Assembly (NCBI GenBank): GCA_003528115.1
Contig: DOGZ01000006.1
Coordinates: 64,076-128,075, forward strand
Length of the DNA: 64,000 nucleotides
Direction of reading: 5' to 3'
Source of the DNA: Candidatus Omnitrophota bacterium
GTDB taxonomy: Bacteria; Omnitrophota; Gorgyraeia; Zapsychrales; Zapsychraceae
In this document: in pieces, positions 2,227-56,884 of the stretch
Position numbering within the stretch: position 1 is the stretch's first letter
Layout: each line of letters starts with the position of its first letter
Position numbers and translations under genes: made by a program
The notes under the pieces: model-generated
Databases searched by the model: none
The model's input: only the letters and a program-made list of their open reading frames with translations
What the model was told of the DNA's origin: nothing

Positions 2227-2239
2227 CTCATCCTCCTCC

Positions 2240-5512: not shown

Positions 5513-5524
5513 ATTCTATTCTCC

Positions 5525-33979: not shown

Positions 33980-34324
33980 CTAAAGATCAAAAAGCAGCTC
34001 GCGGCACGACGGAGGGGTCTTAAGGCCCCCCTGCTTCTTCTCAATCCTTTCCTCAATGACTTTGGCTATCTTTTTGATATCCGCTTTGGGGCGCTGCGTA
34101 TCCTGCCGGCCTAGTTTGATCGCGGCCACTAAAGACAGGACCTTAACCATCTCCGCAAAAGACATCGCCTCGCAGATTTGATGGATGTCCTCCCGGAGAG
34201 TCGTATCAACGTCGAGACCATCCAACGCTCGGACGAATGGCGAGTTTTTATCGAGCTTACTGATTCCCGCCCGCGCGGCCTCGCTCAAAAAGGAGACCAG
34301 TTGTTGCTTGAGTTGTGCCTTCAT
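33980..34324 (-). CDS. hypothetical protein
   Basis: 114-aa ORF in the same minus-strand gene string. Confidence 0.3.
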   Translation of the reverse strand: MKAQLKQQLVSFLSEAARAGISKLDKNSPFVRALDGLDVDTTLREDIHQICEAMSFAEMVKVLSLVAAIKLGRQDTQRPKADIKKIAKVIEERIEKKQGGLKTPPSCRELLFDL

Positions 34325-34452: not shown

Positions 34453-35058
34453 TTATTTGGGTTGCCCAATAGGCGTAAAGCCTTCCATCTCACCTTCTCC
34501 GATTGTAAGAACACCTTGTTTTTTTCTCGAACTCCGCATGAAAGAAATCTTATAATCTTTTTCCGGAGGGGCCTTGGCAACAAGATCCTGGAAATGCGCA
34601 AGGCTGGTAATCTTTTTTGTATCAAATGAGAGGAGAATATCCCCGGCCTTTAATCCTGCCTTGTCCGCCCATGAATTCCCCATCACGCCGGTGATTTTGA
34701 CCTTGCCTCCACCAACGGGGATGACCTCAGCACCCATTTGTTTTATAAGCACAGGCGCCTGCTGTCCCGGGAAAAGAACCGGTGCGCCGGCCATCGCTGC
34801 CTGCTGCATCATGCCGCCCTGATAGGGATAATACCCTTGACCACCCTGGTTAGGGTAATACCCTTGACCCTGTTGCGGTAGCGGATAATACGCGGCAGGT
34901 GAATACGCGCTTTGCTTCAACATGTCCGCCGTGGTTATCTCATGCAACGTTTCTTCAACCGCATACTGTGCCCTATCGTTACTAAAGAGCGCTATAACGA
35001 GCATGACGAGAAACGCCACCCCACATATACTTATAATAACTTCCTTCTTCATCATCAC
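34453..35058 (-). CDS. PDZ-domain protein with Gln/Gly/Tyr-rich low-complexity segment
   Basis: N-terminal TM. QGQGYYPNQGGQGYYPYQGG repeat. PDZ core (GAEVIPVGGGKVKITGVMGNSWADKAGLKAGDILLSFD). Confidence 0.55.
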   Translation of the reverse strand: MMMKKEVIISICGVAFLVMLVIALFSNDRAQYAVEETLHEITTADMLKQSAYSPAAYYPLPQQGQGYYPNQGGQGYYPYQGGMMQQAAMAGAPVLFPGQQAPVLIKQMGAEVIPVGGGKVKITGVMGNSWADKAGLKAGDILLSFDTKKITSLAHFQDLVAKAPPEKDYKISFMRSSRKKQGVLTIGEGEMEGFTPIGQPK

Positions 35059-35116: not shown

Positions 35117-35299
35117 TTACGTGCCTTGCGGGTGATCCTGACGGCCTAACAAAAAATAAAGGATCATCCCTATCAAGGGCAGAATAAAAATCAGTACGCT
35201 CCAGAGAATTTTTTTTGCCATCGGCAGATATCCACGTAACACATCCACAATGACGCCAATCACCAGAAGAACGTAAAAAACGCCTAATAAAGATTCCAT
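35117..35299 (-). CDS. PLDc_N-like small membrane protein
   Basis: 60 aa, two TM, pattern resembling the PLD-nuclease N-terminal (PLDc_N) family (ILWSVLIFILPLIGMILYFLLGR). Confidence 0.45.
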   Translation of the reverse strand: MESLLGVFYVLLVIGVIVDVLRGYLPMAKKILWSVLIFILPLIGMILYFLLGRQDHPQGT

Positions 35300-35333
35300 G
35301 GCTTTCCCTCCTTCTTTTTATTGTTGTTGATCC

Positions 35334-36347
35334 TTACGGCGCTAAAAATAATTTTATGGCAAGCACTACCAAAATAATTACGAACAAATAAAGCGTTACT
35401 TTCGTATTTAGCTTCGGCGCAATGCGCGCGCCGGCCTGGGCGCCAGCCACTACACCAATCCCCATCCAAAGGGCCTCGGCATACATGACATTACCCAAAA
35501 AAACATGGGGCAAAAGAGCGATCGCGCAGGTAAGCAGCGTTACAAAATGGCTCGTCGCCGTGGCGACATGCGAAGGATAATTCAAAAGAAAAATCAGAAT
35601 CGGCACCTGAAACACGCCTCCGCCGATACCTAAAAACCCGCAAAAAAAACCCAGCAAAATGTTCATCGATATGCCCAGTCCATCGTTCGCGTAAAAATCA
35701 TACTTGACACCGAATTGGTCGATGAATTTCACCCGTCGGAACCCTGAGGCCTTAGCTTCTTTAAGATATTTCTGCTTTTGATCGGTTGTCTTATCTATCC
35801 TGCCGACGCTAAAAAAAGTATACACGGCTAAAAAAATCAAAAAGATTCCGAAGATATGGTCAAAAAACGTAAGATTAACAAGATGATGGGTAAAGCTGGA
35901 TATCAGGGCTCCCGGCATTGCTGCGAGCGTAAACTTTATACCGCCCGTATAATCTATCCTTTTTTGCGCGGCATATCCGGCGCATCCGGATGAGGCGTTT
36001 AATAAGACGATAAAAAGCGATGTGGCAACAAGAAGCTCATTCTCCCACCCATAAAAGAAAACCAAAAGCGGCAGAATAATGGGTCCCCCGCCTATTCCGA
36101 CGATCGTTCCATAACAGCCGATAGCCAAACCCGTTATAAGTAAAATCCACCAGGCCGGTTGATCAGCAGCGACGGTCGGGGAGAGCTGTCCAGCCGGTTG
36201 CGCGATGGCCGGAATCTGCAGAGACGGCGGGACACGCGATGTGGATGAGCTAAACATCGCAAAAAGGGCAAGGATCACGAACAAACCCGTGAGACCTATC
36301 TTTGTATAATCTGTCCAATCGTATACAACCTCATTCTTAACGCGCAT
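35334..36347 (-). CDS. TauE/SafE-family membrane protein (stand-alone MamO-C-terminal-like)
   Basis: Duplicated TauE-type Gly-rich helices (GTIVGIGGGPIILPLLVFFYG ... GFLGIGGGVFQVPILIF). In magnetosome clusters of some lineages the TauE half of MamO is a separate gene. Confidence 0.6.
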   Translation of the reverse strand: MRVKNEVVYDWTDYTKIGLTGLFVILALFAMFSSSTSRVPPSLQIPAIAQPAGQLSPTVAADQPAWWILLITGLAIGCYGTIVGIGGGPIILPLLVFFYGWENELLVATSLFIVLLNASSGCAGYAAQKRIDYTGGIKFTLAAMPGALISSFTHHLVNLTFFDHIFGIFLIFLAVYTFFSVGRIDKTTDQKQKYLKEAKASGFRRVKFIDQFGVKYDFYANDGLGISMNILLGFFCGFLGIGGGVFQVPILIFLLNYPSHVATATSHFVTLLTCAIALLPHVFLGNVMYAEALWMGIGVVAGAQAGARIAPKLNTKVTLYLFVIILVVLAIKLFLAP

Positions 36348-36360
36348 GCTGTAAATCTCC

Positions 36361-38163
36361 TTAAGGGATGATGCTTAAAAATATAATGTAAAAAGTCGAG
36401 AGCACAAGAATGACAATCGTTATCGGTATTCCCAGACGGCTGTAATTAGCGAAGGTCAGGCCTTCCTTTTTCTTCTGATCCGTCCCCAGTTCCTCAGCAA
36501 GAGTCTGAGCTATGATGCCCGCGCTGGCGCCTGAAATACACGCGCAGGCCCCTGCTATTGATCCTAAATTTAAAGCCCACCACACAACATCCGTAAAATC
36601 CGCGAATCCTGAATGCATGACAATAGGGACAAGAAACGCCGATGCCGGTCCGGAGCTCATCAGCGCCGTAAGAAGCGTCGTTACCAACATCAAAAAGATC
36701 GGATACAGAATCTTATTGCCCATCGACATCGCGATGAGACCATCAGAAACAACCTTTAGAAGTCCGGAGTACAACGCGCCGCCGACGATCAAAAAGAGCG
36801 CGAAAAAGAATAATATGTCCGTGAGGCTTATCTTTTTTATCACCTCTTTGGCCTTTTGGTTCTCGATGGCCAAAAGGATAAAAGCACCGCCCATGGCTAT
36901 CGGCGCAAGATGTATCTTAAAACTCGGTAAAACTATAAAGGCCAGAAGAACACACCCCAAGATAAAAAGGACTCTTTTAATGTTAGGCCAATCCATCTTC
37001 ATGGCGCCAACTTCTTGTTCGACTTTGCTGAGGAATGCTTTCTCCAGTTTAAGAGACTTGACTTTTCCCTTATGCCGCAACTCGAAAAACCACAGATACC
37101 AGAGAAAAACAGCTAAAAACACAGCGCATATAGGTCCCATGACGATGAGAAAATCCATGAACGTTAATCCCGCGCTCGAGGCCATCAGCATATTGGAAAA
37201 ATCTCCAATCGGGGTAATGTTTCCGCCGATAACGGAAGAAATGATTTCAGCAATAACAACGGTGACAGGCTCGAAGTTCAATCCCCGCGAGGCATAAATT
37301 GTTATGGGAATAATGACCAAAATAACCGACATATTGTTAACCAGCGCTGACGCGATAAAGGTCATGATACACAAAGAGAGGATCACCTTGACGGAGTCGG
37401 CTTTTGACGTGATGATGATTTTCTTTGAAACATACTCAAAAAACCGTAAATCCTCGAGAAATATGGTGAAAATACTCATTCCCATAAAGATGAAAATCGG
37501 GCTCATCCGGATAGAGTCGAACGCCTCGGTTTGGTTATAAAAACCAAAAACCGAACCGGCGACCAGCATAAGGACCGCGCCCAGCGTCACACACACCGTA
37601 CGATTAAAGAGATTTAAGAAAAGCATGGAAAAGGTAATAAAGACAATCACCAGGACGACTAATATATCCCTGCCATTGGGCCCAAAGATGTCGATGCCGG
37701 CATGGACGGGAATTTTATCGGCCATATTCATGATTCTGCCATTACGCCAAATAACAAAGCTGACCTTCTCACTTGGCTTACTCTGTGACATCAAATACGC
37801 GAGGTGATTGGCGGACTGGACATCAACGCCATTGTATTCGAGGATCACATCCCCGCGCCTGATATCGATAAGACGCCTGGCCGACCCTTTCGGGACATTG
37901 TTCACTAAAACCCCGCCCACATTAGAGAGATTAAATTCCTTGGCGATGATGGTATTGACGGTAATGACATCAAATTCAAGGGCATTGGTGCCGCCGGATT
38001 GAACCAGACGCGGTTTGCTGGATCGAGGCATATTTCTGGTATCTATAAAAAGCGCCGCGAGCACAACAATGACAACCAGGGCAATGGCCGCCTCCATAAA
38101 CGGAAAACTCTTGAAACGCTCCAATTTATCTTTTTGCAAAGATCTTGACCTACTCAAAGCCAT
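36361..38163 (-). CDS. PDZ domain fused to ArsB/NhaD-superfamily ion permease (MamN-like)
   Basis: N-terminal TM plus PDZ (GGVLVNNVPKGSARRLIDIRRGDVILEYNGVDV). C-terminal ~440 aa polytopic permease with ArsB/NhaD-like motifs (NITPIGDFSNMLMASSAGL..., GSIAGACACISGASAGIIAQ). Confidence 0.55.
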   Translation of the reverse strand: MALSRSRSLQKDKLERFKSFPFMEAAIALVVIVVLAALFIDTRNMPRSSKPRLVQSGGTNALEFDVITVNTIIAKEFNLSNVGGVLVNNVPKGSARRLIDIRRGDVILEYNGVDVQSANHLAYLMSQSKPSEKVSFVIWRNGRIMNMADKIPVHAGIDIFGPNGRDILVVLVIVFITFSMLFLNLFNRTVCVTLGAVLMLVAGSVFGFYNQTEAFDSIRMSPIFIFMGMSIFTIFLEDLRFFEYVSKKIIITSKADSVKVILSLCIMTFIASALVNNMSVILVIIPITIYASRGLNFEPVTVVIAEIISSVIGGNITPIGDFSNMLMASSAGLTFMDFLIVMGPICAVFLAVFLWYLWFFELRHKGKVKSLKLEKAFLSKVEQEVGAMKMDWPNIKRVLFILGCVLLAFIVLPSFKIHLAPIAMGGAFILLAIENQKAKEVIKKISLTDILFFFALFLIVGGALYSGLLKVVSDGLIAMSMGNKILYPIFLMLVTTLLTALMSSGPASAFLVPIVMHSGFADFTDVVWWALNLGSIAGACACISGASAGIIAQTLAEELGTDQKKKEGLTFANYSRLGIPITIVILVLSTFYIIFLSIIP

Positions 38164-38243
38164 TGTTTTCTCCCGTCATTTTTCCTCATTTCCTTTTATG
38201 TGTGAAGGGAATGACCTGCCTCACCTGATTCGGCGGCCTCTCA

Positions 38244-39005
38244 TCAATTCGTCGATTTCTCCGCAGAATCGACTTGCATGGGAATAGGTTCTTTGAAATT
38301 TGGATCAATTTGTATTCGAACCGGTGTTTTAAGATCTTGATCCAGTTCCGCGTAATGAAACATTTCTTCCTTATATCCAAATATAAACGCGAAGAAACTC
38401 GCCGGAATCTGGCGAACACAAGCGTGAAAAACGCTGGCAGCCTTGTTATACTCCATGCGGCTGGCGGCAATGCGGTTTTCACTCTCAACAAGCGCGTCCA
38501 TCAATTTCTGAAAATTAGCGCTTAATTTAAGATCAGGGTACGCTTCGGCAATGGCCATGAATTTAGAAAGGGCATCTTCGATATTCCCCGCCTTCATTTT
38601 AGCCAATTCATTAAGGCCGTTCTTTTCGATCGCATTCAGGATCCTATCCGTCTTTTGCAAGGTGTCTGCCCGCTTGTCCGCCATATACTGGTACATCATA
38701 CGTTCATGCTGCGCATAAACAATAATCGTCTTGGCCAGATTAATCGCAAGATCTTTTCTCCTCTGGAGCTGTACCTCGATTTGGTGTTGCTCCATTTCTG
38801 TAAACCGCGAAAGTTGAATAAATTTGTTATGGTAATAAACGCCCAGGAGTATCATCACCACGGCCAGCAGAGAGGCCACAAGTCCTTCTTTCCTTTTTAA
38901 ATTACTGAAATTGATTTTTTGCCACCTATGTTTTCTTACCGGTTGGAACTCTTCCAAATCATTGGCAAAAAGTCTCTTGATTGTCTCTGATATCATCCTG
39001 CTCAT
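38244..39005 (-). CDS. mamQ: LemA-family protein (MamQ-like)
   Basis: N-terminal TM plus LemA signature (QIEVQLQRRKDLAINLAKTIIVYAQHE). The position next to mamA/mamB-like genes mirrors mamQ. Confidence 0.55.
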   Translation of the reverse strand: MSRMISETIKRLFANDLEEFQPVRKHRWQKINFSNLKRKEGLVASLLAVVMILLGVYYHNKFIQLSRFTEMEQHQIEVQLQRRKDLAINLAKTIIVYAQHERMMYQYMADKRADTLQKTDRILNAIEKNGLNELAKMKAGNIEDALSKFMAIAEAYPDLKLSANFQKLMDALVESENRIAASRMEYNKAASVFHACVRQIPASFFAFIFGYKEEMFHYAELDQDLKTPVRIQIDPNFKEPIPMQVDSAEKSTN

Positions 39006-39164
39006 GGGTTTTTCTCCCGCCTTTTTTATTTTTTCATAACTGCCCGCAAAACACGTTCAACATAAAACCCTACACAATCGCAATTCATTTCAAAGTCGGA
39101 AATCCCCTGATAAACTCAGGCTTCCAAGCAAAGTCGCCGGCCACTCCGACCCCTCAAACATTTT

Positions 39165-40013
39165 TTAAACCCTGGGTCTGTATTTTTCCCCCCCCCCCCG
39201 CTTAACTCCTCGTTGGATTCTCTCCATATCCATTGCCTTCTTGAAGCACGCCACGGCGTCCTTATGACTGCCGGAATTTTCATACAAAAATCCAAGGGCT
39301 TGATAATATACCGCCTCTCGGGGTTCGAGGTCGATGGCTTTCTTATAAAAATTCTTAGCCTCTTCAATCTGTTCAATCTTCTCGTAACAGGTGCCTAGTT
39401 GATAATAGATGTCGCTATTATCCGGCTGGAGCTCGCTAGCCTTATTAAGAAAAATGATCGCTTCAGGATAATCTTCGCTCATAAAGAGGCAATCGCCGAG
39501 TTCGCTAATAATGTCCGGGTCATCTTTATTAAGTTTTTCCGCTTTTCGCAAATAGCGCATCGCCTCTTTAGTTTGGTCCATATTTTTGTGGCACATGGCA
39601 ATCATATAGAGAATCTCGGCATCGTTCTCTTTTCCATTTTCGATATACTCGAGAAAATAGTCCTTGGCCGTCTCGTAATCGCCCTTATCAAAGTATTTGT
39701 AGCCCAGCTCCTTGTTGAAATTAACTTTGTTTTCTGCGGGCCCAACAAAAATATTCTTGTAACCTTCCGTGAGGCCGTTAATGAGCCGCTCGGTCGTCGA
39801 AAGAGATGCGAAAGCGGCAACTTGTAACTTTTGGCCGAGGGAGGGATTTCTTTTTTCTTCTTTGCCCTTTTTGTTTTTTTCGGACTTCCTTACCGTTTTT
39901 TCTTCTTTCACTTCTTCGCCTTCGTCAACTGATTCCTCTTCTTCTACCTTATCGGTTATATTGCTGTCTTTCTTCATTTCGCCGTGCCGATGATATTTTT
40001 TAAGCTGTTCCAT
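39165..40013 (-). CDS. mamA: TPR-repeat protein (MamA-like) with Lys/Glu-rich N-terminal extension
   Basis: About 5 TPR units (AKDYFLEYIENGK..., AMRYLRKAEKLNKDDP..., AIIFLNKASELQPDNS..., AKNFYKKAIDLEPREA..., AVACFKKAMDM). Adjacent to the CDF pair. Confidence 0.55.
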   Translation of the reverse strand: MEQLKKYHRHGEMKKDSNITDKVEEEESVDEGEEVKEEKTVRKSEKNKKGKEEKRNPSLGQKLQVAAFASLSTTERLINGLTEGYKNIFVGPAENKVNFNKELGYKYFDKGDYETAKDYFLEYIENGKENDAEILYMIAMCHKNMDQTKEAMRYLRKAEKLNKDDPDIISELGDCLFMSEDYPEAIIFLNKASELQPDNSDIYYQLGTCYEKIEQIEEAKNFYKKAIDLEPREAVYYQALGFLYENSGSHKDAVACFKKAMDMERIQRGVKRGGGEKYRPRV

Positions 40014-40031
40014 ATTTCCTCCATGCGTTTA

Positions 40032-40988
40032 TTAAGCGACCGGATTAAGCTGATTCTTTGCGCCCAGCGGCCTATTCGTTTTTGTAACCAAATTTTCTTT
40101 ACAAGTAAAAGAAATGGTCACCTCTTTTACTTGATTAAATCGGCGCATGATCGCCTGACGTACTTCGCGGGTTATGGCATGCCCCTCTTTAACTGTTCTT
40201 TTGGGATCGATAATAATCTCCATATCGATCCAAGCCTTCTGTCCAACCCTGCGGATATGGATATAATTTACGCCCTTGACTTGCCTGTACTGGAGCACCA
40301 CCTTCTCGATAAGCTTTCTTTTCTCACCTGGAAGCGATTCGTCAATGAGATTTTTAAAGGCCTGGAGACCTAAGATAACCGCCGACTTGGCGATCATCAA
40401 CCCGACTAGAACCGCTGCCAGCGCGTCGAGTATAGGAAAGCCGATGTTCGCCGCAAAAACCCCGAACAAAACCGCGACGCTTGATAACATATCTGACCTG
40501 TTTTCTTGGGCATTGGCAATCATGGCCGGAGAGTTCATCTTTTTCCCAGCGCAGAAACCATAAGAAGACAGGATATAGTTAGCGATGACGGCCACAAGCG
40601 CGGCAAAAAAAGCCGCCATGTGAGGAGGATGGATAACGCCGCTTGCGATCACCGCGAGCGCGTCCAAGAGAATCATACACGCTATTCCTAAAAGCAACAC
40701 GTAGGCAAAGACCGCGCCTAAAAATTCGGACTTCCCCAGACCCCAAGGATATTTTTTATCGTCCCTATGCCGCGAGAGGCCGACGGTTATAATAACCATC
40801 AAAGTGGTTACAACGTCTGTCCCGGAATGGATCCCGTCGGCGACAAGACCTTTTGACTTTGCGACATATCCTATGTATATCTGAAAAAGAGCCAGTGTCG
40901 CGTTCCCCAGGAGAACCACCCAGGGGACTATTTTTGAACATCGGATACATTTCTCTTCCATAACCAGTCGCTTACTCCTCTGGAACAA
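40032..40988 (-). CDS. mamM: cation diffusion facilitator transporter (MamM-like)
   Basis: 318 aa CDF with N-terminal CxRC (EEKCIRCSK), 6 TM and a C-terminal cytoplasmic domain. Paired with a second CDF, as mamM/mamB are. Confidence 0.55.
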   Translation of the reverse strand: MFQRSKRLVMEEKCIRCSKIVPWVVLLGNATLALFQIYIGYVAKSKGLVADGIHSGTDVVTTLMVIITVGLSRHRDDKKYPWGLGKSEFLGAVFAYVLLLGIACMILLDALAVIASGVIHPPHMAAFFAALVAVIANYILSSYGFCAGKKMNSPAMIANAQENRSDMLSSVAVLFGVFAANIGFPILDALAAVLVGLMIAKSAVILGLQAFKNLIDESLPGEKRKLIEKVVLQYRQVKGVNYIHIRRVGQKAWIDMEIIIDPKRTVKEGHAITREVRQAIMRRFNQVKEVTISFTCKENLVTKTNRPLGAKNQLNPVA

Positions 40989-41868
40989 CCTGTATAGCGA
41001 TGTTCCCTATATGTTTATCTTCACCGCGTAAATACGCCTTGACCGATTGATTTATCTTCTTCGCCTCGAGGACGCTTATCTTCGGATCCAGTTGCATGAT
41101 AACATCTAGAACAATCTGCCTTCCTGATTGACGTCCCCGCACTTGGTTAACTCTGCTTACGCCACTGACCTTAAGAATACAGTTTTTTATATTTTCAAGA
41201 TAATCAGCAGGGAGATTCGTATCCATAATGCCTTTAAGGCCTTCTTTAAGAATAGCAAAACTGCCGTGCAAGACGTGGGCGCATTCAAAAATGGCTATAG
41301 CCGGGTCAACCCAATGCATCCCTTTGCGTGTGACGATCACGCCGACAGCAACCAAAAGAGATGAGATAACATCAATCTTATTATGTTCCGCGTGCGCCTT
41401 TAACGCGGGACTGTTCAGTTCCTTGCCGCCACAATGCGCGAACTTATAGAGAAGTCCGTTGATAACAGCGCTCAAGATGGCCACAAAAAATACAACCATG
41501 TGCTGAACAATAAGAATACGTTTCGCGATAACAATGAACGAACTGAAGATGAGTGCGACCGTGCCCAAAATCATCGTGGCGCTCATTATGACCTGGGCGA
41601 TAAACTCGATTTTGCCGTAACCGTAAGGGTACCGATGATCCGCCGGCTTTTTTGAATACTTTATGCCGGTAATAACGACCACGGAGGAACTTATGTCGCT
41701 TAAATTACACAAGCCGCTTCCGATTAAGGCGCGACTGCGTCCCAAAAAACCGACGAAAAGCTTAAAGGCCGCGAGAAAAAGATTCGCCAGAAGTCCCAAC
41801 AGGATGGTCTTACGCGCGCAGGCCTCACATTTTTCCGGATTTTTTGTTGACTCATGCCTCATCTTCAA
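40972..41868 (-). CDS. mamB: cation diffusion facilitator transporter (MamB-like)
   Basis: 298 aa CDF. N-terminal CEAC. KPADHRYPYGYGKIEF and NSPALKAHAEHNKIDVISS closely resemble recalled MamB blocks (KPADERYPFGYGN..., NSPAIIANAWDNRSDAISS). Confidence 0.6.
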   Translation of the reverse strand: MKMRHESTKNPEKCEACARKTILLGLLANLFLAAFKLFVGFLGRSRALIGSGLCNLSDISSSVVVITGIKYSKKPADHRYPYGYGKIEFIAQVIMSATMILGTVALIFSSFIVIAKRILIVQHMVVFFVAILSAVINGLLYKFAHCGGKELNSPALKAHAEHNKIDVISSLLVAVGVIVTRKGMHWVDPAIAIFECAHVLHGSFAILKEGLKGIMDTNLPADYLENIKNCILKVSGVSRVNQVRGRQSGRQIVLDVIMQLDPKISVLEAKKINQSVKAYLRGEDKHIGNIAIQVVPEE

Positions 41869-42127
41869 ACAGTTCCTCGTCCTCTTCCACCAATTCGCTT
41901 AATTTCCGTTTCTTCTTCATCTTAGCGCCAATGTGGACCATAAACCAAAATATGTTTGACGCGCCAATCAGGTACGAAATCAATATGATAACGATCAACC
42001 CGCATTGCCGACCTCTAAAAAGCGGTATCCATATCGGAACGGGCGTGAGATTCTCAAAGATAAACATGCCCAAAAAGGTAAGGATCAAAAGCAGCGCGAT
42101 TATCTTCAATACCGTCTTTATCTTCAT
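41852..42127 (-). CDS. small 2-TM membrane protein with basic then acidic C-terminal tail (MamL-like candidate)
   Basis: 91 aa, two hydrophobic helices, KMKKKRK then EEDEELFEDEA tail. Overlaps the mamB-like start. Confidence 0.4.
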   Translation of the reverse strand: MKIKTVLKIIALLLILTFLGMFIFENLTPVPIWIPLFRGRQCGLIVIILISYLIGASNIFWFMVHIGAKMKKKRKLSELVEEDEELFEDEA

Positions 42128-42221
42128 AAAGATCTCTTCCTCTGGCCAGCCTCCCTAGGGTAGACCTCCCATTTTACTTTCTATTCTAATGAAAGGTTCG
42201 TCCTGTCATAGGACGGCCTTG

Positions 42222-43373
42222 TTATTTCTTTAAAATGATATGACACGTGTTGCATTTACCGCGATATTCATGCGGAGGAATCGCCCCCCTAGTTATCGGC
42301 GGCGGGTTAGGCAATATGTCCCCCGCGTCTGTCGGAAGTTGACCGCCGGTCGCCATAAAAATATGGCAAGCCGTACATGGCTGATGCCTGATGCGATGCG
42401 GACTTAAGGCATTTGGCGTTATGGGTTGGGCAGCCTCATTTTGTGAAAATCCCAGTGTCCTTGTTGATGAGAATGTAAATTCCAGTAATTGCCCGCGCCG
42501 GGAAACGAGTATTTTTGCTTTATACCTATTTTTCACTCTTCTCGTGGCTTCGGTAAAGGCAATGAGGTCTGGTGTGGCAATCCGATTTACAGCAACGACC
42601 ACATCTCCCGCCAATATCCCGGATTCAGCGGACTCAAGCGATATCTCATCAACGAGAAGCCCATTGATTTCCGCAGGAACCTGATATTCCTTGGCCAACT
42701 CCGGTGTAAGCGGAATAAGTTCGATCCCGAGCCAGTGCCCCTCAATGAGTTCTTTGTGGACGGCGCCCTGTTCTCTCGGGCTAGGGAGTTTCAAGGGAGG
42801 AGTATTCTGGCCGCCCATAATCGCTCCTGCCTCGCCGGCAGCCGGACCTGCCTCGGCTGTTTCAGCAGGCGAACGATTCGCAAACGCTGCCTGCGTCATC
42901 CCCTGAGGAATACCGGCAGTACCGGTAATCGCCGCATCAAGATTCAGCGCTTTTTTATCGTTGATTCCTAATTTATTTTCCATGGTAATATAAAGCGGCT
43001 GCCCATTGCGCAGCATATCCAAAAGGACGCCCGTCTCTAAGTTTGCCGCCTTGGCTCCTTTAAGAAATTCAGATATGTTCTTTACTTTTTTATTGTTAAT
43101 CGCCTTCAAAAGGTCGCCGCCGAGCACGCCTGCCGAATAGGCCGGGTCCTCACTCCAGTTGACAACGACACCTTGCTCATCTTTGGGAATGTTGAACTCC
43201 ATCCTAAGCGCGGGCGTGATGTTTGAGACCGACATACCGGCCCACTCGGCATCACCAGCGCCTATATGCATAAGCGCTGCCATAAAGAAAAGCGCCATGG
43301 CTCCAAGCGTTAGGAGAAGAAGAAATCTCTGTCTATTTTTGTGACGGTGTTGGTTAAGTTTATCAGGCATCAA
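42222..43373 (-). CDS. PDZ-domain protein with two C-terminal CXXCH magnetochrome-like motifs (MamP / MamE-Cter-like)
   Basis: N-terminal TM, two PDZ-like regions, then SPHRIRHQPCTACH and PPHEYRGKCNTCH (P-x-H-x5-6-C-x-x-C-H). Confidence 0.6.
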   Translation of the reverse strand: MMPDKLNQHRHKNRQRFLLLLTLGAMALFFMAALMHIGAGDAEWAGMSVSNITPALRMEFNIPKDEQGVVVNWSEDPAYSAGVLGGDLLKAINNKKVKNISEFLKGAKAANLETGVLLDMLRNGQPLYITMENKLGINDKKALNLDAAITGTAGIPQGMTQAAFANRSPAETAEAGPAAGEAGAIMGGQNTPPLKLPSPREQGAVHKELIEGHWLGIELIPLTPELAKEYQVPAEINGLLVDEISLESAESGILAGDVVVAVNRIATPDLIAFTEATRRVKNRYKAKILVSRRGQLLEFTFSSTRTLGFSQNEAAQPITPNALSPHRIRHQPCTACHIFMATGGQLPTDAGDILPNPPPITRGAIPPHEYRGKCNTCHIILKK

Positions 43374-43382
43374 TACGTTGTA

Positions 43383-43646
43383 TTATTTTGAGGTTGTTTT
43401 AGGTTTAAGTTCAATACGCTCGATAGCGGTATTGCATTCCTTGCAGACCCAAAGCTGTCTCTTGGCTCCCATCATATATAAACCAATCACAAAGAGTGGA
43501 ATCCCTAAAACCGCGCCGATCCAAAAAAGCGTCGCGAAAACACCGCCCGCGACTAAAAATCCTCCAACTTTCCTACTATAGCGAGGTCCTGTATAAGACT
43601 GCATCTCGCCATTACAAAGCGAACAAATTAAAGGCTTGTTTGTCAT
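43383..43646 (-). CDS. small membrane protein with split zinc-ribbon (CSLC...CKEC) flanking a TM hairpin
   Basis: 87 aa. CxxC at residues 8-11 and 68-71, two TM helices between. Confidence 0.4.
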   Translation of the reverse strand: MTNKPLICSLCNGEMQSYTGPRYSRKVGGFLVAGGVFATLFWIGAVLGIPLFVIGLYMMGAKRQLWVCKECNTAIERIELKPKTTSK

Positions 43647-43909
43647 CTCTCCCTCTTTTTCATGGTTTCATTGTAATCGTGACGAGTAATCAATTCATCA
43701 ATGGCTTTTTCTTTTTCGACGTCAATAACCTCTTGAGCTCTTTCTTCGGTGTGTTCTGCAACAATTTCTTGCCCCTTCATCGTCTTATCGCTTGAAACGC
43801 TCTTAGAAGTTGTGCAAGATGGTCCGTTGGGTTTTTTAGTAACGATGGACACTATCGCGCCCGCTGTCATTGATATAACAATAACTCCCAAGATCGAAAA
43901 TGGCTCCAT
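43643..43909 (-). CDS. small single-TM protein with charged C-terminal tail
   Basis: 88 aa. N-terminal TM (FSILGVIVISMTAGAIVSIV), K/E-rich tail. Confidence 0.35.
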   Translation of the reverse strand: MEPFSILGVIVISMTAGAIVSIVTKKPNGPSCTTSKSVSSDKTMKGQEIVAEHTEERAQEVIDVEKEKAIDELITRHDYNETMKKRER

Positions 43910-43969
43910 GCTTTTCCTCCTCGTTAACCCACGTTAATAACATTTATGAGCCTGCCTTAATATAAACGC

Positions 43970-45472
43970 TCAATTGCCGCCACCAATGACGACGTGCGCG
44001 GTGTTTGGGTCCTGCATTACGTTATTCTGCGTCTGACTATTTTGCATCCTGCTCTGAATATTCTGCGCGCCCGCCGGGGTTCCCAATTGATGGCAATTGG
44101 TGCATGATCCCCGGTACTCATGAGGCATAATGATAGGGGGTGCAACTGCTGCCCCTTGCGGTGTGCCCTGGGCCACAAAACCTGCATTTTGCGTCATAGC
44201 GACCTGGTTTGTAAAATTACCGGTACCGCCAAAGCCTAACGGAGCCGCATTGTTTGGGATATTTTGATTCTGCGAATACGCGCCACCTTGTGCCATAATC
44301 TGGTCACAGTTAGGGCATCGAGGATACGGATCGTTTGGATCTTTCTGGGCATACATCCTCCAGTTACAATTTGGACAGAGAAAAAAACCGGTTGATTCAG
44401 GGCCCTGCCAAAAATTTGGCTGGTTGGTCATCTGGTTCATCTGGGGCCGAAGTTGTGTCATATCTGCCGCCCATTGCCCTTCTGACCACCACTTCCCGAT
44501 TTTATTCTGGTTAGACATATCGAGGGCCAAGGGAGAAGCACAGTTCGGACAATTCGGAAAGTTATTCCCCTGACGGGTCGCTTTCATTCGCCAATTACAA
44601 TTCGGACAAACAAAAGCCTGTTGCCCCCAACCAAAAGCGGCCTGAGTCCCCGCCGTAGCAAAATTATTCCCCATGCCCATACCATCCATCACGCCTTTGT
44701 TGTATATGTCCTGTGTTCCCCAGCCGGCTGGCACCCCACCATATATGCCGCCGCCCTGCATTCGATTCGGAATTGGGCAGAAATAATTGTTCATTCCCAT
44801 GCCCTGCATATCCTGCATTCCCCAACCAGTTTGTGTTGCTTGTTGTGCGACATTTTGCTGCATCATCAGTGTTCCTTGCCCGTGGACTGCTTGCGCATTG
44901 CCCCAAGTCGGTTGAGGCGTTTGCATTATCGGTGAAATTTGGGGAATATTCGCCGTAGGTTGCGGTACTTGTGCTATCCGGGCTTGCCGATAAAGCTTGA
45001 TGACATTGCGCGTCTGACCTTGATACCCGCCAAACACCCGTATGTCGAATTGCAAAAGAATGTTATAACTTTGCTGGTCTATGCTTCCTACGATAACGGC
45101 TTCCTCCCCTTTGCCGGCTATTAAATACGCGATCTGAGGATTAGGCTCCGCGCCACGATAAGGATTCTTTATGGCCTCAACGAGTTTTCTTGACAAAGGA
45201 TCGACCACCAAAAAGAAGCTCGCCTCAGACAATGTCGCGGATACATTTGAAGCCAAAGACGGTCCGTCCGTAGCAACAACGATTTTCCCGCAGGCGGGAT
45301 TTCCCAGTCTTGAATTCTGGGATCCAGGTGAGAATAGGGCATACACACCGACGACTAATACAAAAACAATTGCGCCAAAAATAAAATAAGTATTTAAGTC
45401 GGTATTTCTTACACGCGCTGTGAATTCCTCAAAGAATGTCTTGATGATTTTCTCTTGGGGTTTCTTTACCAT
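43970..45472 (-). CDS. mosaic protein: TM + NifX/NifB-like (FeMo-cofactor-binding-fold) domain + Gln/Gly/Met-rich region + two CPNC...CPNC zinc-ribbon pairs + C-terminal magnetochrome-like CXXCH
   Basis: GKIVVATDGPSLASNVSATLSEASFFLVVDP...AYLIAGKGEEAVIVGSI resembles the dinitrogenase FeMo-cofactor-binding fold. CPNCNWRM...CPNC occurs twice. C-terminal MPHEYRGSCTNCHQ. Confidence 0.55.
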   Translation of the reverse strand: MVKKPQEKIIKTFFEEFTARVRNTDLNTYFIFGAIVFVLVVGVYALFSPGSQNSRLGNPACGKIVVATDGPSLASNVSATLSEASFFLVVDPLSRKLVEAIKNPYRGAEPNPQIAYLIAGKGEEAVIVGSIDQQSYNILLQFDIRVFGGYQGQTRNVIKLYRQARIAQVPQPTANIPQISPIMQTPQPTWGNAQAVHGQGTLMMQQNVAQQATQTGWGMQDMQGMGMNNYFCPIPNRMQGGGIYGGVPAGWGTQDIYNKGVMDGMGMGNNFATAGTQAAFGWGQQAFVCPNCNWRMKATRQGNNFPNCPNCASPLALDMSNQNKIGKWWSEGQWAADMTQLRPQMNQMTNQPNFWQGPESTGFFLCPNCNWRMYAQKDPNDPYPRCPNCDQIMAQGGAYSQNQNIPNNAAPLGFGGTGNFTNQVAMTQNAGFVAQGTPQGAAVAPPIIMPHEYRGSCTNCHQLGTPAGAQNIQSRMQNSQTQNNVMQDPNTAHVVIGGGN

Positions 45473-45526
45473 AATTCTCTCCTCATCTGATATATCGACA
45501 TCAGCAATTCATAAGAACTGATAATA

Positions 45527-46117
45527 TCACTTAAAAACAGGACCGTACTGAAACACTTTTCCAGAAAACGGCGAACCAAGCTGCCAACTCCCCTTATTTG
45601 GTCCTAAAAGCGGGCCGTATTGATATTCGAAGGGGATGGCTATATATAAAGTCTTTCCATCCCGATTAATGTCTAAGAGAATTCCTTCCGTATATTGAAC
45701 ACTATTAGCCACTTTGACAAAGGCACGGGCCGTCGCAACGGGCTTCCGGCCAATGGCGACGATAACATCACCGGTCTTTACTCCGTATTTTTGGGCCAAT
45801 TGTTTTCCCTCATCAATAACGAACATCCCTTTGATTTTAGCCTGGATATTGAATTCCTTCCTGATACTCCGTGAAAGAGGGGCCAGCTCCATACCGACCC
45901 ACATCAAGCTGTCTCCTTTTTCAATAACCATGCCTTTTGTCACTTCCTTTGGTTCCTGCTTCTCTGGAAGGATCTCTAAGGAAGATAATAATCGGAAAAA
46001 GACAATGATCCCGAAGACCACGATACCGGCAAAATACCACGGCTTTTCTAACGCAAAATCTTTAACCTGTTTTTGAAATTTTTTAAATGTAGGATTCGCC
46101 CTGGACTTTGTGTTCAT
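45527..46117 (-). CDS. membrane-anchored PDZ-domain protein
   Basis: N-terminal TM plus PDZ (GMFVIDEGKQLAQKYGVKTGDVIVAIGRKPV). Confidence 0.55.
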   Translation of the reverse strand: MNTKSRANPTFKKFQKQVKDFALEKPWYFAGIVVFGIIVFFRLLSSLEILPEKQEPKEVTKGMVIEKGDSLMWVGMELAPLSRSIRKEFNIQAKIKGMFVIDEGKQLAQKYGVKTGDVIVAIGRKPVATARAFVKVANSVQYTEGILLDINRDGKTLYIAIPFEYQYGPLLGPNKGSWQLGSPFSGKVFQYGPVFK

Positions 46118-47517
46118 TGTAATTTTATTAACACCTCATCGACCTTACCGTTTCTAAGGACACGCACGTTGACGTTGTCCCCAGTCTTAAAATGCGCGAC
46201 TATTTTTGGAATATCGTCTTTCCCGGTAATCGGCACACCGGCTACCGCGACAATGATGTCTCCGCGTTGGATACCGGCAAAACTGGCTGGAGATTCGTCA
46301 ATAACTCTATTGACTAAAACACCCTGCCGCTCGGTAATCCCGAACTGTCGCGCTATGACAGCGTCCACCGGCATGACCTCAATCCCAAAATGAACAGGAA
46401 TTGGGGCTTTTTGCGTCTTATTAAGATCCCTAAAGTCTCCGACCAGCATCCCTTTTTGATCAACTGGGAATGAATAGTTCTTGCCGAGATTTTCCGCAAG
46501 AAAATCTTTACAGTCATTGATCGGTATGGCAAACCCTGTCCCGCTAAAAACTCCTGTCGGCGCGTAAATAGCCGTATTGATTCCAATAACCTCTCCTCTT
46601 AAATTAACAAGGGGGCCTCCGGATGATCCTCGGTTTATGGGCGTGTCCGTCTGAAAAAGGTTTTTATACCGAACACCTTCAATCGCGATGGATTTCCGTA
46701 TGCCGCTGATAATCCCGCTGGTAACTGTCTGCTCAATACCAAAAGGGCTGCCCACGGCGATGACATAATCACCTAACTGGCTGAAACTGGAATCCCCTAA
46801 TTTCGCTTCGGGAAATGGGCCGTCGGCTTTGACTTTAATAAGGACCAGGTCGTTGTCGGGATCCTGCGCGATAATATCCGCGTGATAATCACGGGGAGGC
46901 GTACCAAAGATTGTTACAACGATATCCGTTGCATCGTGGGTCACATGACAGTTCGTCAGCACATATCCTCGTTCATCAACAATGACGCCCGCGCCGATAT
47001 TCTCGTATCCTTTATTTTCAATAAATTTATCAACACTACCGTCAAACGAAGGGATAAATTTTAAATTTTGCGCATCGATGGCTTGCCGATTGCCGGGTGA
47101 ACGAACAATTCTTCGGGCATGCACGTCACACACGGAAGGGATGACAGCATTAACAGCGTCTTTCAATGAATTCTGAAAAACGCTGTGTGATGAATTGGCC
47201 ACAAGCTGCATATTCCCGTAGGGTGTTGCCTTAGTGATGCCCGCGAGTGCATAATCCCCGGCAGATTGTGGACTGTTCACGGCGGCCTGCGTAACCGCTT
47301 TGGGGAAGGACGGCTCACCGGTAATAGGAGAAGTGACCTTGGGCACGCGCTCCTTTTCCATCTCAACCCCTTGAATGATATCTTCCCTCTTCATCATAAC
47401 CCAAAAAACTAACATGACGCAGATAAGAGCCACGCCGGCAATCCAGGGACCGATCGGTTGATTACAAAATTGACCTCTGTTTTCATCCATCACATAAACT
47501 CCGCTGTCCGTCCCCAA
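46114..47517 (-). CDS. trypsin-like serine protease (HtrA/DegP family) with C-terminal PDZ (MamE-Nter / MamO-like)
   Basis: Catalytic triad context: TNCHVTHDAT (His), DLVLIKV (Asp), GSSGGPLVN (Ser). PDZ at the C-terminus. N-terminal TM. No CXXCH, so the magnetochrome part appears to be encoded separately (42222..43373). Confidence 0.7.
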   Translation of the reverse strand: MGTDSGVYVMDENRGQFCNQPIGPWIAGVALICVMLVFWVMMKREDIIQGVEMEKERVPKVTSPITGEPSFPKAVTQAAVNSPQSAGDYALAGITKATPYGNMQLVANSSHSVFQNSLKDAVNAVIPSVCDVHARRIVRSPGNRQAIDAQNLKFIPSFDGSVDKFIENKGYENIGAGVIVDERGYVLTNCHVTHDATDIVVTIFGTPPRDYHADIIAQDPDNDLVLIKVKADGPFPEAKLGDSSFSQLGDYVIAVGSPFGIEQTVTSGIISGIRKSIAIEGVRYKNLFQTDTPINRGSSGGPLVNLRGEVIGINTAIYAPTGVFSGTGFAIPINDCKDFLAENLGKNYSFPVDQKGMLVGDFRDLNKTQKAPIPVHFGIEVMPVDAVIARQFGITERQGVLVNRVIDESPASFAGIQRGDIIVAVAGVPITGKDDIPKIVAHFKTGDNVNVRVLRNGKVDEVLIKLQ

Positions 47518-47573
47518 CCGGTCTATTGCAAATTTGTTGCTTAGTTTTCCCGGTAGAGTTTCTCACATAACAA

Positions 47574-47636
47574 TACCGTGTCAACTTAATGATGATTAGT
47601 TAGGCACGGTACAACTCTTCGCTCTTTCTGAAAATA
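47574..47636. repeat. conserved hairpin motif, family B copy 1 (upstream of protease gene)
   Basis: TACCGTGTCAACTTAAT-(14 nt)-CACGGTACAAC-(8 nt)-CTTTCTGAAAAT. Stem bases co-vary with copy 2 (C:G in copy 1, T:A in copy 2). Confidence 0.5.
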
Positions 47637-47693
47637 TCTATTACTGACCTCCACGAAAAAAATGGCACTGGCATTATGAGTGTCGTCAAATTA

Positions 47694-47912
47694 TCAAAAG
47701 ACAAATTTGTTGGCAGCATCAACGTCCGTTGATGGATTCGGAAAAGCCGCCTGCACTGCGGCTTTCTTGGGTGTCGCCTTGCGATGCGCTTTACCATGCT
47801 TACGGGTGCCTTTGAATTCAATGAAAATCGCGCCCGCCATGACAACGCAAACCACAACGATGACCAAGAATCCGAGCCAAGGACTAAAACATTTTTCCTT
47901 CTTACCGATCAT
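47694..47912 (-). CDS. small single-TM protein with basic C-terminal tail
   Basis: 72 aa. TM (WLGFLVIVVVCVVMAGAIFI) then KGTRKHGKAHRKATPKK. Confidence 0.35.
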   Translation of the reverse strand: MIGKKEKCFSPWLGFLVIVVVCVVMAGAIFIEFKGTRKHGKAHRKATPKKAAVQAAFPNPSTDVDAANKFVF

Positions 47913-47927
47913 GATACCTCGCAGATA

Positions 47928-48098
47928 TTATTTTTTGTCCTTTTGGAGTTTCATCCCGGTGTTGACCGCGATAAGTCCTCCGATAAAAAGCACCAGAGGT
48001 AGGAATCCCCGCAGAAAATCGCCGAAATTATCCCACCATCCTATAATCCCGATGAGTCCAAGAACTGCCGCAACCGCTCCGCCGATAATATGTACCAT
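47928..48098 (-). CDS. unannotated 56-aa 2-TM protein (MamI-like candidate). Below the ORF-track size cut-off.
   Basis: Reverse-complement of 47928-48098 gives MVHIIGGAVAAVLGLIGIIGWWDNFGDFLRGFLPLVLFIGGLIAVNTGMKLQKDKK. Two Gly-rich helices separated by a WW-containing loop, reminiscent of MamI. Confidence 0.4.
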   Translation of the reverse strand: MVHIIGGAVAAVLGLIGIIGWWDNFGDFLRGFLPLVLFIGGLIAVNTGMKLQKDKK

Positions 48099-48155
48099 TC
48101 ACTTTCTCCTTTCGTTATCCAGTTCAACTTTATCCTTTAGTTTCAGAAAATTTTT

Positions 48156-48617
48156 CTATGTGAAAATTTTTAAGAGCGCGTTCTTCGCCGAAGCGAAATG
48201 TTTGCCGGATAAATAAAACCTTTCTCTAAAAAATTCATTAATTTTGTCCTTTTTCGCGGACATAAGGACGTTTGAGGATTCCGCCACCGCGTTTTGTTCC
48301 ATCCTCTTAAGAACTTTTTTTCTCTGAGGATAGTCCCTGGCAAGATATTTAGGGTCTGCTGAAGTAATTTCCTTTGATTCCAAACAAGACACGCTTGGTG
48401 AGTCAGTACCGGATTCGGTGGGCTCTTGTTTAATCGATTGGCTTTCTTTCTTGAGAAGAACTAGGATGGCTTCTCTGGGTATTCTCTGGTGCCCGCCAAG
48501 GGTGGAAACAGCTAAAAGTTTACCTTTTTTGATCCAATTAAGAATTGTAAAACGTGTTACATCGCAGATCTTTGCCGCTTGCGATGTCGTTAAGTACTCG
48601 TTAGGCATAACTGGCAT
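48156..48617 (-). CDS. HTH DNA-binding protein (excisionase/MerR-like HTH; MamR-like?)
   Basis: N-terminus LTTSQAAKICDVTRFTILNWIKKGKLLAVSTLGGHQRIPRE is a MerR/excisionase-type HTH_17 motif. The C-terminal 100 aa have no recognisable fold. Confidence 0.5.
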   Translation of the reverse strand: MPVMPNEYLTTSQAAKICDVTRFTILNWIKKGKLLAVSTLGGHQRIPREAILVLLKKESQSIKQEPTESGTDSPSVSCLESKEITSADPKYLARDYPQRKKVLKRMEQNAVAESSNVLMSAKKDKINEFFRERFYLSGKHFASAKNALLKIFT

Positions 48618-50474: not shown

Positions 50475-50562
50475 ACGGTTTTAATTAAGGCGGTAGTATA
50501 TCAAAATATCCCATCTGCGCAAAATAAAAATAATCTGCCTTAACAATGGATAGCTTAACGGC

Positions 50563-54889: not shown

Positions 54890-54892
54890 CCT

Positions 54893-56233: not shown

Positions 56234-56251
56234 ATTTCTTTCATTTTAATT

Positions 56252-56872: not shown

Positions 56873-56884
56873 GATTCGATGTGA

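Follow-up and report, generated by a model that had tools for sequence, protein, structure and literature searches.

Gene Content of the Locus

We analyzed a window of 64,000 nucleotides from an Omnitrophota genome (contig DOGZ01000006.1, assembly GCA_003528115.1), in which 26 co-directional minus-strand genes run from position 48608 down to position 28086, as delimited by the database gene calls of an identical contig. The run includes homologues of MamI, MamP, MamM, MamB, MamA, MamQ, and MamN. Its intergenic gaps do not exceed 203 nt, and five gene pairs overlap by 1–11 nt. At least one hydrophobic segment is present in 18 of the 26 products, and the last five (HEAT407, p166, HEAT653, p115, and p57) are soluble and highly charged. 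The genes are probably transcribed as one or a few long units.

The cluster proteins were searched against Pfam, NCBIfam, and PDB; the magnetosome models of NCBIfam are alphaproteobacterial. A scan of species-representative genomes for MamQ homologues returned 10 loci, all Omnitrophota, which together with two extended loci from other Omnitrophota genomes (L016 and L017) make up the 12 loci used here, and a tblastn matrix of the window genes was computed. A minus-strand magnetosome-like cluster had been proposed for this DNA from its letters alone. This original prediction holds in its main part, since every gene that it listed lies where it was placed, a magnetosome model is the top NCBIfam match for seven genes (MamN, MamQ, MamA, MamB, MamM, MamP, and MamI), and 12 loci of other Omnitrophota genomes show the same gene order. 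Physical clustering with co-orientation, conserved across magnetotactic relatives, is thus found for 26 genes and 12 loci.

Magnetosome Homology of the Core Proteins

Two adjacent cation diffusion facilitator (CDF) transporters, each with Cation_efflux and ZT_dimer domains, occupy 40972..41862 (−) and 40032..40961 (−). In NCBIfam, the first is of MamM type (MamM 245.7 bits, MamB 195.8, FieF 114.6) and the second of MamB type, by a marginal lead over MamM (MamB 231.3 bits, MamM 221.4, FieF 112.2), with the equivalog cut-off of 350 missed in both cases. MamB and MamM are the two best models for both proteins, at about twice the FieF score, which places the pair in the MamB/MamM group and not with FieF, as had been predicted. 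Both carry an N-terminal CxxC motif (CEAC at residue 12 in the MamM-type protein, CIRC at residue 5 in the MamB-type protein). The MamB-like block KPADHRYPYGYGKIEF on which the prediction drew is present; it sits, however, in the transporter that scores best as MamM. The C-terminal domain of the MamB-type protein matches PDB entry 6qek, "Magnetosome protein," at E = 2.3e-9, and also MamM C-terminal domains. Across all 10 genome loci, identity is 68–83% for the MamM-type and 68–84% for the MamB-type transporter.

The MamP homologue (42222..43370, −) consists of a membrane anchor, an extra N-terminal PDZ domain, and a MamP core of one PDZ domain and two magnetochrome units. Its match to the Pfam magnetochrome family PF18509 (37.8 bits) is above the cut-off of 30.4, and in NCBIfam it scores 213 bits to MamP against 62 to DegP. 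The solved MamP structure (PDB 4JJ0) aligns to residues 188–381 at E = 7.5e-39 with both CXXCH motifs (CTACH and CNTCH) in register. These matches bear out the magnetochrome assignment and the two motifs noticed earlier, to which a further CXXCH protein at 43970–45472, absent from the earlier list, has to be added (p500, below). The MamT and MamX models match through the CXXCH region only. The MamP protein has 250 homologues, the named ones mostly from Candidatus Omnitrophica/Omnitrophota metagenome-assembled genomes. Its longest open reading frame (ORF) uses a TTG start, and the recorded gene begins one codon later.

Downstream of the transporters lies the MamA homologue (39165..40013, −), a TPR protein with an acidic N-terminal extension. 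It scores 138 bits to the NCBIfam MamA model, against 66.7 for the next TPR family, and matches PDB MamA chains at E = 1e-18 to 1e-12. The MamQ homologue (38244..39005, −) is a LemA-family protein with one transmembrane segment; MamQ is its sole NCBIfam match (114 bits; Pfam LemA 112.6 bits), and it is 54–68% identical in 10 loci. The next gene (36361..38163, −) encodes a 600-aa fusion, PDZ::MamN, in which an anchor and a PDZ domain (PDZ_6/PDZ_2) precede a CitMHS/ArsB-type permease of about 11 transmembrane segments (Pfam CitMHS 174.8 bits). The NCBIfam MamN model scores 237 bits against 34 for ArsB, in agreement with the predicted MamN-like NhaD/ArsB permease; the additional N-terminal PDZ domain had gone unlisted. 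Relatives have the identical 600-aa architecture, at 58–79% identity in 10 of 10 loci.

A stand-alone TauE/SafE permease (35334..36347, −; Pfam TauE 189 bits) adjoins MamN in 10 of 10 loci at 71–79% identity. It resembles the C-terminal part of MamO, to which its match is weak (17.6 bits only, over residues 373–648 of the NCBIfam MamO model). Desulfovibrio magneticus RS-1 cannot form magnetite unless it has a stand-alone tauE gene of its magnetosome island (PMC4287615), and TauE as a gene of its own is the arrangement known from deep-branching clusters.

Near the head of the run, the MamI homologue (47928..48098, −; 56 aa, two hydrophobic segments) matches the NCBIfam MamI model at E = 1.8e-12 and 47 bits. 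A precomputed Pfam match (PF26391, MamI) exists for an identical protein, and identity is 81–89% in 6 related loci. A serine protease of the HtrA/DegP type, anchored at its N terminus and bearing one PDZ domain, follows at 46114..47490 (−) (Trypsin_2 107.8 bits plus PDZ). In NCBIfam it scores 292 bits to the DegP subfamily, 255 to MamE, and 91 to MamO. Its His, Asp, and Ser positions align with those of DegP. Because this catalytic triad is kept and CXXCH is absent, we regard the protease as the counterpart of the N-terminal half of MamE. No second, degenerate protease of the MamO type is present in the cluster. The gene for PDZ196 (45527..46117, −), a membrane-anchored PDZ protein of 196 aa, overlaps the protease gene by 4 nt; its PDZ_2 and PDZ_1 matches are below the Pfam threshold, NCBIfam returns the DegP PDZ region and MamP (37 bits), and identity is 52–63% in 6 loci. 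By architecture only, it may be likened to the MamE C terminus or to FmpA.

Beyond these proteins, no family match in the cluster was found for MamH, MamJ, MamK, MamL, MamR, MamS, MamT, MamU, or MamV, apart from weak ones such as that of MamR at E = 0.043. The latter involves the first gene of the run (48156..48608, −), which encodes an HTH_17/excisionase-type DNA-binding protein of 150–153 aa (Pfam HTH_17 38.5 bits, NCBIfam excisionase 37 bits); it is kept at the cluster head in 8 of 10 related loci and is a possible regulator.

Small Membrane Proteins and the Distal Genes

The original prediction had counted several 55–90-aa proteins with two transmembrane segments, which is correct for three of the small proteins (MamI, p91, and a PLDc_N-domain protein); p72, p88, and p87 have one hydrophobic segment each. 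Single-pass p72 (72 aa; 47694..47912, −) has no family match and occurs at the same position in 6 loci at 49–57% identity. Single-pass p88 (88 aa; 43643..43909, −), with an acidic tail and likewise no family, is poorly conserved (30–37% identity in 3 loci only). In p87 (87 aa; 43383..43646, −), a hydrophobic segment lies between two CxxC motifs (CSLC at 8 and CKEC at 68) in a LITAF-like layout; the Pfam zf-LITAF-like match is below threshold (E = 0.01), and identity is 60–72% in 7 loci. Two hydrophobic segments and a basic-then-acidic tail characterize p91 (91 aa; 41852..42127, −), which has a weak LapA_dom match (19 bits) and sits between MamP and the CDF genes in 10 of 10 loci at 41–71% identity. 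We considered p91 as a candidate MamL and rejected it: the layout alone fits, and no magnetosome family of NCBIfam or Pfam matches at E ≤ 0.1. The PLDc_N-domain membrane protein (60 aa; 35117..35299, −; Pfam PLDc_N 36.7 bits) is kept in 7 of 10 loci.

The run continues beyond TauE and PLDc_N with PDZ199 (199 aa; 34453..35052, −), a membrane-anchored protein with PDZ_6 (39.1 bits) and PDZ_2 (38.9 bits) matches and 48–65% identity in 10 of 10 loci, and with p114 (114 aa; 33980..34324, −), a soluble protein of no known family (44–65% identity in 7 loci). An AmaP-like membrane anchor protein (236 aa; 33257..33967, −) exceeds the NCBIfam AmaP cut-off (57.2 bits versus 55) and is 45–63% identical in 6 loci; a FecR-domain membrane protein (296 aa; 32367..33257, −) scores 46.4 bits to Pfam FecR and is 55–62% identical in 4 loci.

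The five soluble products at the end begin with HEAT407 (407 aa; 31124..32347, −), an acidic HEAT-repeat protein (HEAT_2 78.8 bits) that is Mad23-like by architecture. Beyond its own sequence cluster it has 23 matches, of which 17 are strong (E ≤ 3e-66) and come from Omnitrophota magnetosome-cluster contigs or unnamed assemblies; the other 6 are weak (E = 3e-10 to 1e-4) and are generic HEAT-repeat proteins. HEAT653 (653 aa; 28644..30605, −) is charged, with C-terminal HEAT repeats (HEAT_2 40.5 bits), and has only 20 homologues. The named ones are all Candidatus Omnitrophica/Omnitrophota, and several share contigs with MamP and MamQ homologues. NCBIfam has no discriminating model for either HEAT protein, and none of the homologues retrieved for them carries a Mad name. 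Between the two lies p166 (166 aa; 30627..31127, −), lysine-rich and without a family, which is 47–50% identical in 3 loci and holds the same position in L016 and L017. The run ends with two small soluble proteins: p115 (115 aa; 28265–28612, −), 59% identical to a 114-aa gene product after the HEAT protein in L016, and p57 (57 aa; 28086–28259, −), the last of the conserved run, 68% identical to a 61-aa gene product in L016.

A Protein with NifX-Like, Zinc-Ribbon, and Magnetochrome Domains

The further CXXCH protein, p500 (500 aa; 43970..45472, −), consists of a transmembrane anchor, a NifX/NifB-like domain (residues 63–173), a Q/G/M-rich linker, four CPNC zinc-ribbon motifs, and one C-terminal magnetochrome unit with CTNCH at 457. 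Both of its Pfam matches are just below threshold (Nitro_FeMo-Co 25.2 bits, MCR 22.8 bits); one Omnitrophota homologue exceeds the MCR threshold. Among PDB entries, p500 matches MTH1175 at E = 2.9e-6 and the magnetochrome unit of MamP at E = 0.0025. Relatives are rare: a full HMMER scan of 1.84 billion cluster representatives returned only 33 at E ≤ 1e-30. Remoter matches share the NifX-like domain alone, and several of them are magnetochrome-PDZ-NifX proteins, with which p500 aligns in two regions, one NifX-like (E = 2e-9) and one magnetochrome (E = 3e-4), whose order is swapped.

In RS-1, FmpB has the order magnetochrome-PDZ-NifX/NifB, and its loss lowers particle number (PMC4287615). We rejected membership of p500 in the FmpB family, since its architecture differs: the NifX-like domain comes first, PDZ is lacking, and four CPNC motifs precede a single C-terminal magnetochrome unit. 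Mad6 was rejected as well, being NapH-like, and FmpB remains the nearer analogue. We therefore read p500 as a putative redox or iron-handling accessory protein, an analogue of FmpB that stands outside the FmpB family. Architectures of the FmpB type were seen in metagenome proteins of about 500 aa (P0217, P0218, P0219, P0226, and P0234), which have two or three magnetochrome units, a PDZ domain, and one or two NifX-like domains; related proteins of 1000–1100 aa combine PDZ and NifX-like domains without magnetochrome.

Conserved Gene Order and Extent of the Cluster

The order shared with related loci begins with the HTH gene, MamI, p72, protease, PDZ196, p500, (p88), p87, MamP, and p91. It proceeds through CDF-M, CDF-B, MamA, MamQ, PDZ::MamN, TauE, PLDc_N, PDZ199, p114, and the AmaP-like gene, and ends with FecR, HEAT407, p166, HEAT653, p115, and p57. 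Relatives have two genes in addition within this last part, a FeoB-like gene before FecR and a DtxR/FeoA-like gene after it. They also continue after p57, with HEAT344, two small genes, a ParA-like gene, a 270-aa gene, and two actin-like genes, and then with a 206-aa gene, an Hpt protein, RR-HK388, and RR180. The genes that flank the run in the window, an H+-pyrophosphatase (HppA) on the left and STAS, HATPase, and SpoIIE genes on the right, are not conserved in the related loci. Since the order is conserved and the flanking genes are not, the HEAT, FecR, and PDZ genes at 28.6–35 kb, which had been thought possible peripheral parts of the island, would belong to it, and the comparison supports 28086, not 35117, as the left boundary of the conserved cluster.

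No tRNA genes and no Rfam families were found in the window, so that the island edge gives no integration-site or riboswitch signal; nor does GC content distinguish the cluster. Immediately upstream, an Ion_trans_2 protein (48910–49680, −) adjoins a partner-switching module (49682–52479, −) composed of a CHASE2-SpoIIE phosphatase, an anti-sigma-type HATPase, and a STAS antagonist. Among the related loci, Ion_trans_2 has one partial match, at the upstream edge of L011. One genome, nDJH6bin5, has two separate loci (L006 and L008) with MamQ, PDZ::MamN, TauE, and CDF genes. Their MamQ identities are 68% and 62%, both are without the upstream block of MamP, p500, protease, and MamI, and they may represent a duplicated or second-type cluster.

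Source Genome and Published Work

By blastn, the window is 99.995% identical to contig MHFX01000005.1 of GCA_001804395.1 across 19.1 kb, and it is 100% identical in nucleotides to an ENA contig. The MamP protein corresponds to accession OGW98142.1, from Omnitrophica WOR_2 bacterium GWA2_45_18. Near-identical sequence is present in independent ENA, NCBI, and Logan assemblies, and because these agree, a chimeric contig is unlikely. GWA2_45_18 is a metagenome-assembled genome from groundwater of the Rifle aquifer, obtained with no magnetic enrichment.

Lin et al. 2018 (ISME J, PMC5955933) reported a nearly complete magnetosome cluster in each of the published Omnitrophica genomes GWC2_45_7 and GWA2_45_18, the two clusters being alike and distinct from those of other phyla. 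In their trees, with GWA2_45_18 among the genomes, MamA, MamB, MamE, MamM, and MamQ are monophyletic and nonmagnetotactic homologues fall outside; the same study found mad genes in the Omnitrophica clusters. Lin et al. 2020 (Microbiome) added 20 further Omnitrophota genomes, from which most of the homologues retrieved here come. Because the window equals a GWA2_45_18 contig and Lin et al. 2018 named that genome, the cluster is already known, and what we describe is a rediscovery of a published Omnitrophota magnetosome gene cluster. The assignment to an Omnitrophota or deep-branching type, made earlier from the letters, agrees with this source and with the occurrence of separate genes for TauE, for the magnetochrome proteins, and for the protease, which lacks CXXCH.

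Omnitrophota clusters bear on the debate over the age and spread of magnetotaxis and are also useful for defining how few genes suffice for a bacterial organelle. The present analysis shows that a divergent magnetosome cluster can be recognized from its letters alone, and it adds a gene-by-gene map, boundaries based on synteny, and a list of differences from relatives. Three differences can be used in comparisons of accessory genes: the FeoB-like and DtxR/FeoA-like genes are lacking, the chain module is displaced, and the domains of p500 are shuffled.

A Possible Reduced and Rearranged Form of the Cluster

In four to six relatives, a FeoB-like and a DtxR/FeoA-like gene stand within the stretch from AmaP through FecR to the HEAT gene; in L007 they lie at 15628–17622 and 18517–19275. 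In the window, the AmaP/FecR junction (33257) is a 1-nt overlap where relatives have the FeoB-like gene, and the FecR/HEAT407 junction (32347–32367) is a 19-nt gap where they have the DtxR/FeoA-like gene. The FeoB-like proteins of the relatives' clusters are divergent (327 bits to TIGR00437). The window does contain a feoA-feoA-feoB group at 59.3–62.0 kb, which had been suggested as a peripheral part of the island. We rejected this, having found no evidence that the group is a conserved cluster component: its FeoB is canonical, with 662 bits to TIGR00437, and shares only 28% identity with the type found in relatives' clusters, and the group does not lie beside the RR190 orthologue in other loci. 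Between feoAB and the cluster, at 52742–58246 (−), are a heavy-metal P-type ATPase, two outer-membrane barrel proteins (one Alginate_exp match and one faint Porin_O_P match), and an FMN_bind protein.

A second difference lies at the distal end. Where relatives continue with the HEAT344, ParA, and actin genes, the window has a membrane H+-pyrophosphatase (25451–27871, −), a position that marks a rearrangement breakpoint. An actin-like gene is found on the same contig about 7 kb past the right end of the window (L018), so that the genome does hold another magnetosome gene just beyond the stretch first examined. Its Pfam match is Volactin, and the NCBIfam MamK model gives only 24.8 bits. We class it as MamK/Mad28-like; it is the orthologue of the relatives' larger actin-like gene (74% identity). 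It is accompanied by a gene of the 206-aa type (listed as 195 aa for this contig) and an Hpt-like gene, after which come sensor kinases and then RR-HK388 and RR190.

The last two genes reach into the window. RR190, a response regulator (62594–63166, −), and RR-HK388, a response-regulator/histidine-kinase hybrid that starts at 63151 (−) and is cut by the window end at 64000, have orthologues (55–72% identity) that adjoin actin-like genes in L016, L017, L020, and L021; in two metagenome loci, these orthologues have one actin-like gene on each side. Because these orthologues flank the actin-like genes of other Omnitrophota clusters, we assign RR190 and the cut RR-HK388 to the edge of a second, displaced cluster segment. 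The actin-like/two-component module lies about 14 kb upstream of the cluster here and downstream of it in L016 and L017; judged by this gene order, the cluster is bipartite in this genome. The initial 10.8 kb of MHFX01000005.1 is a possible location of HEAT344, ParA, and the second actin gene.

Three features, the lack of the FeoB-like and DtxR/FeoA-like genes, the changed position of the chain module, and the presence of lineage-restricted proteins (p500, the PDZ::MamN fusion, and the LITAF-like 87-aa p87), lead us to suggest, tentatively and at somewhat less than even odds, that GWA2_45_18 carries a rearranged and reduced form of the Omnitrophota cluster previously not described in detail. 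It is speculation that housekeeping FeoAB replaced a dedicated magnetosome FeoB; if true, this would be a natural experiment on dispensable accessory genes.

Two groups of genes in the window stand apart from this subject. A glycogen-metabolism group at 796–7035 (−), unrelated to the cluster, comprises two GH57 enzymes (one of them branching), DUF4912, a GT4/starch-synthase-like transferase, and CBM48. A single ORF of 2266 aa extends over 9140–15940 (−) and is likewise annotated as one gene on the ENA contig (2264 aa). It has partial matches in series to triosephosphate isomerase, class-II fructose-bisphosphate aldolase, the enolase N-terminal domain, and the enolase C-terminal domain, with long unmatched stretches between the enzyme domains; GC skew at 10–14 kb is about −0.25.

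Interpretation and Proposed Function

We interpret the 26 genes at 28086–48608 as the main segment of the GWA2_45_18 magnetosome gene cluster, with a probability of about 0.92. From the computed domain content, homology ranking, gene order, and genome identity, we infer biochemical roles, mineral type, operon structure, and magnetotaxis, drawing for the functional model on Magnetospirillum and RS-1 genetics. MamI, MamQ, the MamB-type transporter, and perhaps p91 would remodel the inner membrane into a magnetosome compartment, and MamA, as a TPR coat, together with the active HtrA protease and its PDZ partners, would sort and process magnetosome proteins. The MamB/MamM pair would load ferrous iron, MamP (two magnetochrome haems) and p500 could set the Fe(II)/Fe(III) balance, and PDZ::MamN with the stand-alone TauE may handle protons or anions freed during crystal growth. 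Finally, the charged soluble HEAT proteins (28.6–32.3 kb) and the displaced actin-like proteins would arrange the crystals into a chain. In RS-1, mamB and mamQ are essential for magnetite and FmpB promotes particle formation (PMC4287615), and chains are built by Mad23 (HEAT), coiled-coil Mad proteins, and actin-like proteins (PMC12748827).

Several observations weigh against this interpretation. No NCBIfam magnetosome match reaches its equivalog cut-off (MamB, for instance, has 231 versus 350, MamP 213 versus 300, and MamI 47 versus 80), which is to be expected in a phylum far removed from the model organisms; orthology is therefore argued from the ranking of scores, from synteny, and from published trees. 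Scores do not separate MamQ from generic LemA, TauE from generic TauE, or the protease from generic DegP. The 64-kb window has no actin-like MamK gene, and at the relatives' position it also lacks a ParA-like and a third HEAT gene; the cluster-internal FeoB-like and DtxR/FeoA-like genes are absent from this locus. Promoter and terminator scans over 27.5–49.2 kb gave counts not above shuffled controls, so operon boundaries and structure are not shown. The cells are known from genes alone, with aquifer groundwater as their source, and the mineral type of Omnitrophota is debated.

The mineral is probably magnetite (Fe3O4), and no result computed here separates a magnetite from a greigite type. 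That the cluster directs greigite (Fe3S4) instead would follow Uzun et al. 2020, who group the Omnitrophica Mam proteins with a putative greigite group and point out that magnetite was assigned on the basis of just one single-cell genome, which was contaminated; some Omnitrophota genomes, moreover, hold both cluster types (Lin et al. 2020). On the other hand, Lin et al. 2020 found putative greigite-type or mixed clusters in only a small fraction of their genomes, and most recovered clusters are therefore of magnetite type, and deep-branching magnetotactic bacteria including Omnitrophota are described with tooth-shaped magnetite (PMC12748827). We consider greigite unlikely here.

The locus could also be a silent or decaying relic that descends from a magnetosome cluster in cells no longer making magnetosomes. 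The loss of the two iron-related genes of relatives would fit such decay, as would the break after the 57-aa gene, where the pyrophosphatase replaces the HEAT344, ParA, and actin genes; the groundwater source comes with no phenotype on record, and a silent cluster is reported in a nonmagnetotactic phototroph (PMC9938234). Yet none of the 26 reading frames is disrupted; their lengths are conserved, identity to orthologues is about 45–89% (p88, 30–37%), and the catalytic triad and the CXXCH and CxxC motifs are kept. The displaced actin-like module is still on the contig, the canonical feoAB nearby could supply iron, and near-identical sequence recurs in several independent assemblies, all of which makes a relic quite improbable.

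A generic metal-efflux or envelope-stress locus that only resembles magnetosome genes, to which the wide distribution of the CDF, HtrA, LemA, TPR, TauE, and PDZ families, the missed cut-offs, and the close scores of generic models might point (DegP 292 versus MamE 255, LemA 112.6 versus MamQ 114, and CDF superfamily 214 and 182), is effectively refuted by the magnetochrome match above the Pfam threshold and the alignment to solved MamP, by MamI being matched in two libraries, by the leads of MamN over ArsB (237 versus 34), of MamA over other TPR families (138 versus 67), and of MamB/MamM over FieF (about twofold), by a gene order conserved in genomes from magnetically enriched samples (Lin et al. 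2020), and by a published monophyly that covers GWA2_45_18.

Comparison with Known Systems

The magnetosome cluster of the window has homologues of MamI, MamE, MamP, MamM, MamB, MamA, MamQ, MamN, and, putatively, the C-terminal domain of MamO in common with Magnetospirillum mamAB, from which it differs in a split MamE, the lack of a MamO protease domain, and the addition of lineage-specific genes. Like the clusters of Nitrospirota (mam, man, and mad23-26 genes), it is of a deep-branching type in which one half encodes membrane proteins and the genes after it encode soluble proteins with HEAT repeats or coiled coils (PMC9840458); man genes are reported from Nitrospirae only (PMC5955933).

The likeness to the island of RS-1 (mam, mad, fmpA/fmpB, and tauE genes) extends further. 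In both, protease, PDZ, and magnetochrome proteins are encoded by separate genes, TauE stands alone, and a magnetochrome protein with a NifX/NifB domain is present, FmpB in RS-1 (PMC4287615); both also have HEAT-containing soluble proteins, which in RS-1 serve chain organization (PMC12748827). Compared with FmpB, the domains of p500 are reversed, with zinc ribbons in place of PDZ. MamN is present in the window as a PDZ fusion, and our searches, made without Mad reference sequences, showed no homologue under the names Mad1, Mad2, Mad6, or Mad23.

The closest counterparts are the Omnitrophota clusters of Lin et al. 2018 and 2020, of which the window holds one: from the HTH gene through p57, the same genes occur in the same order in 12 loci of other Omnitrophota genomes, and PDZ::MamN, the separate TauE, p500, and the HEAT proteins are among them.

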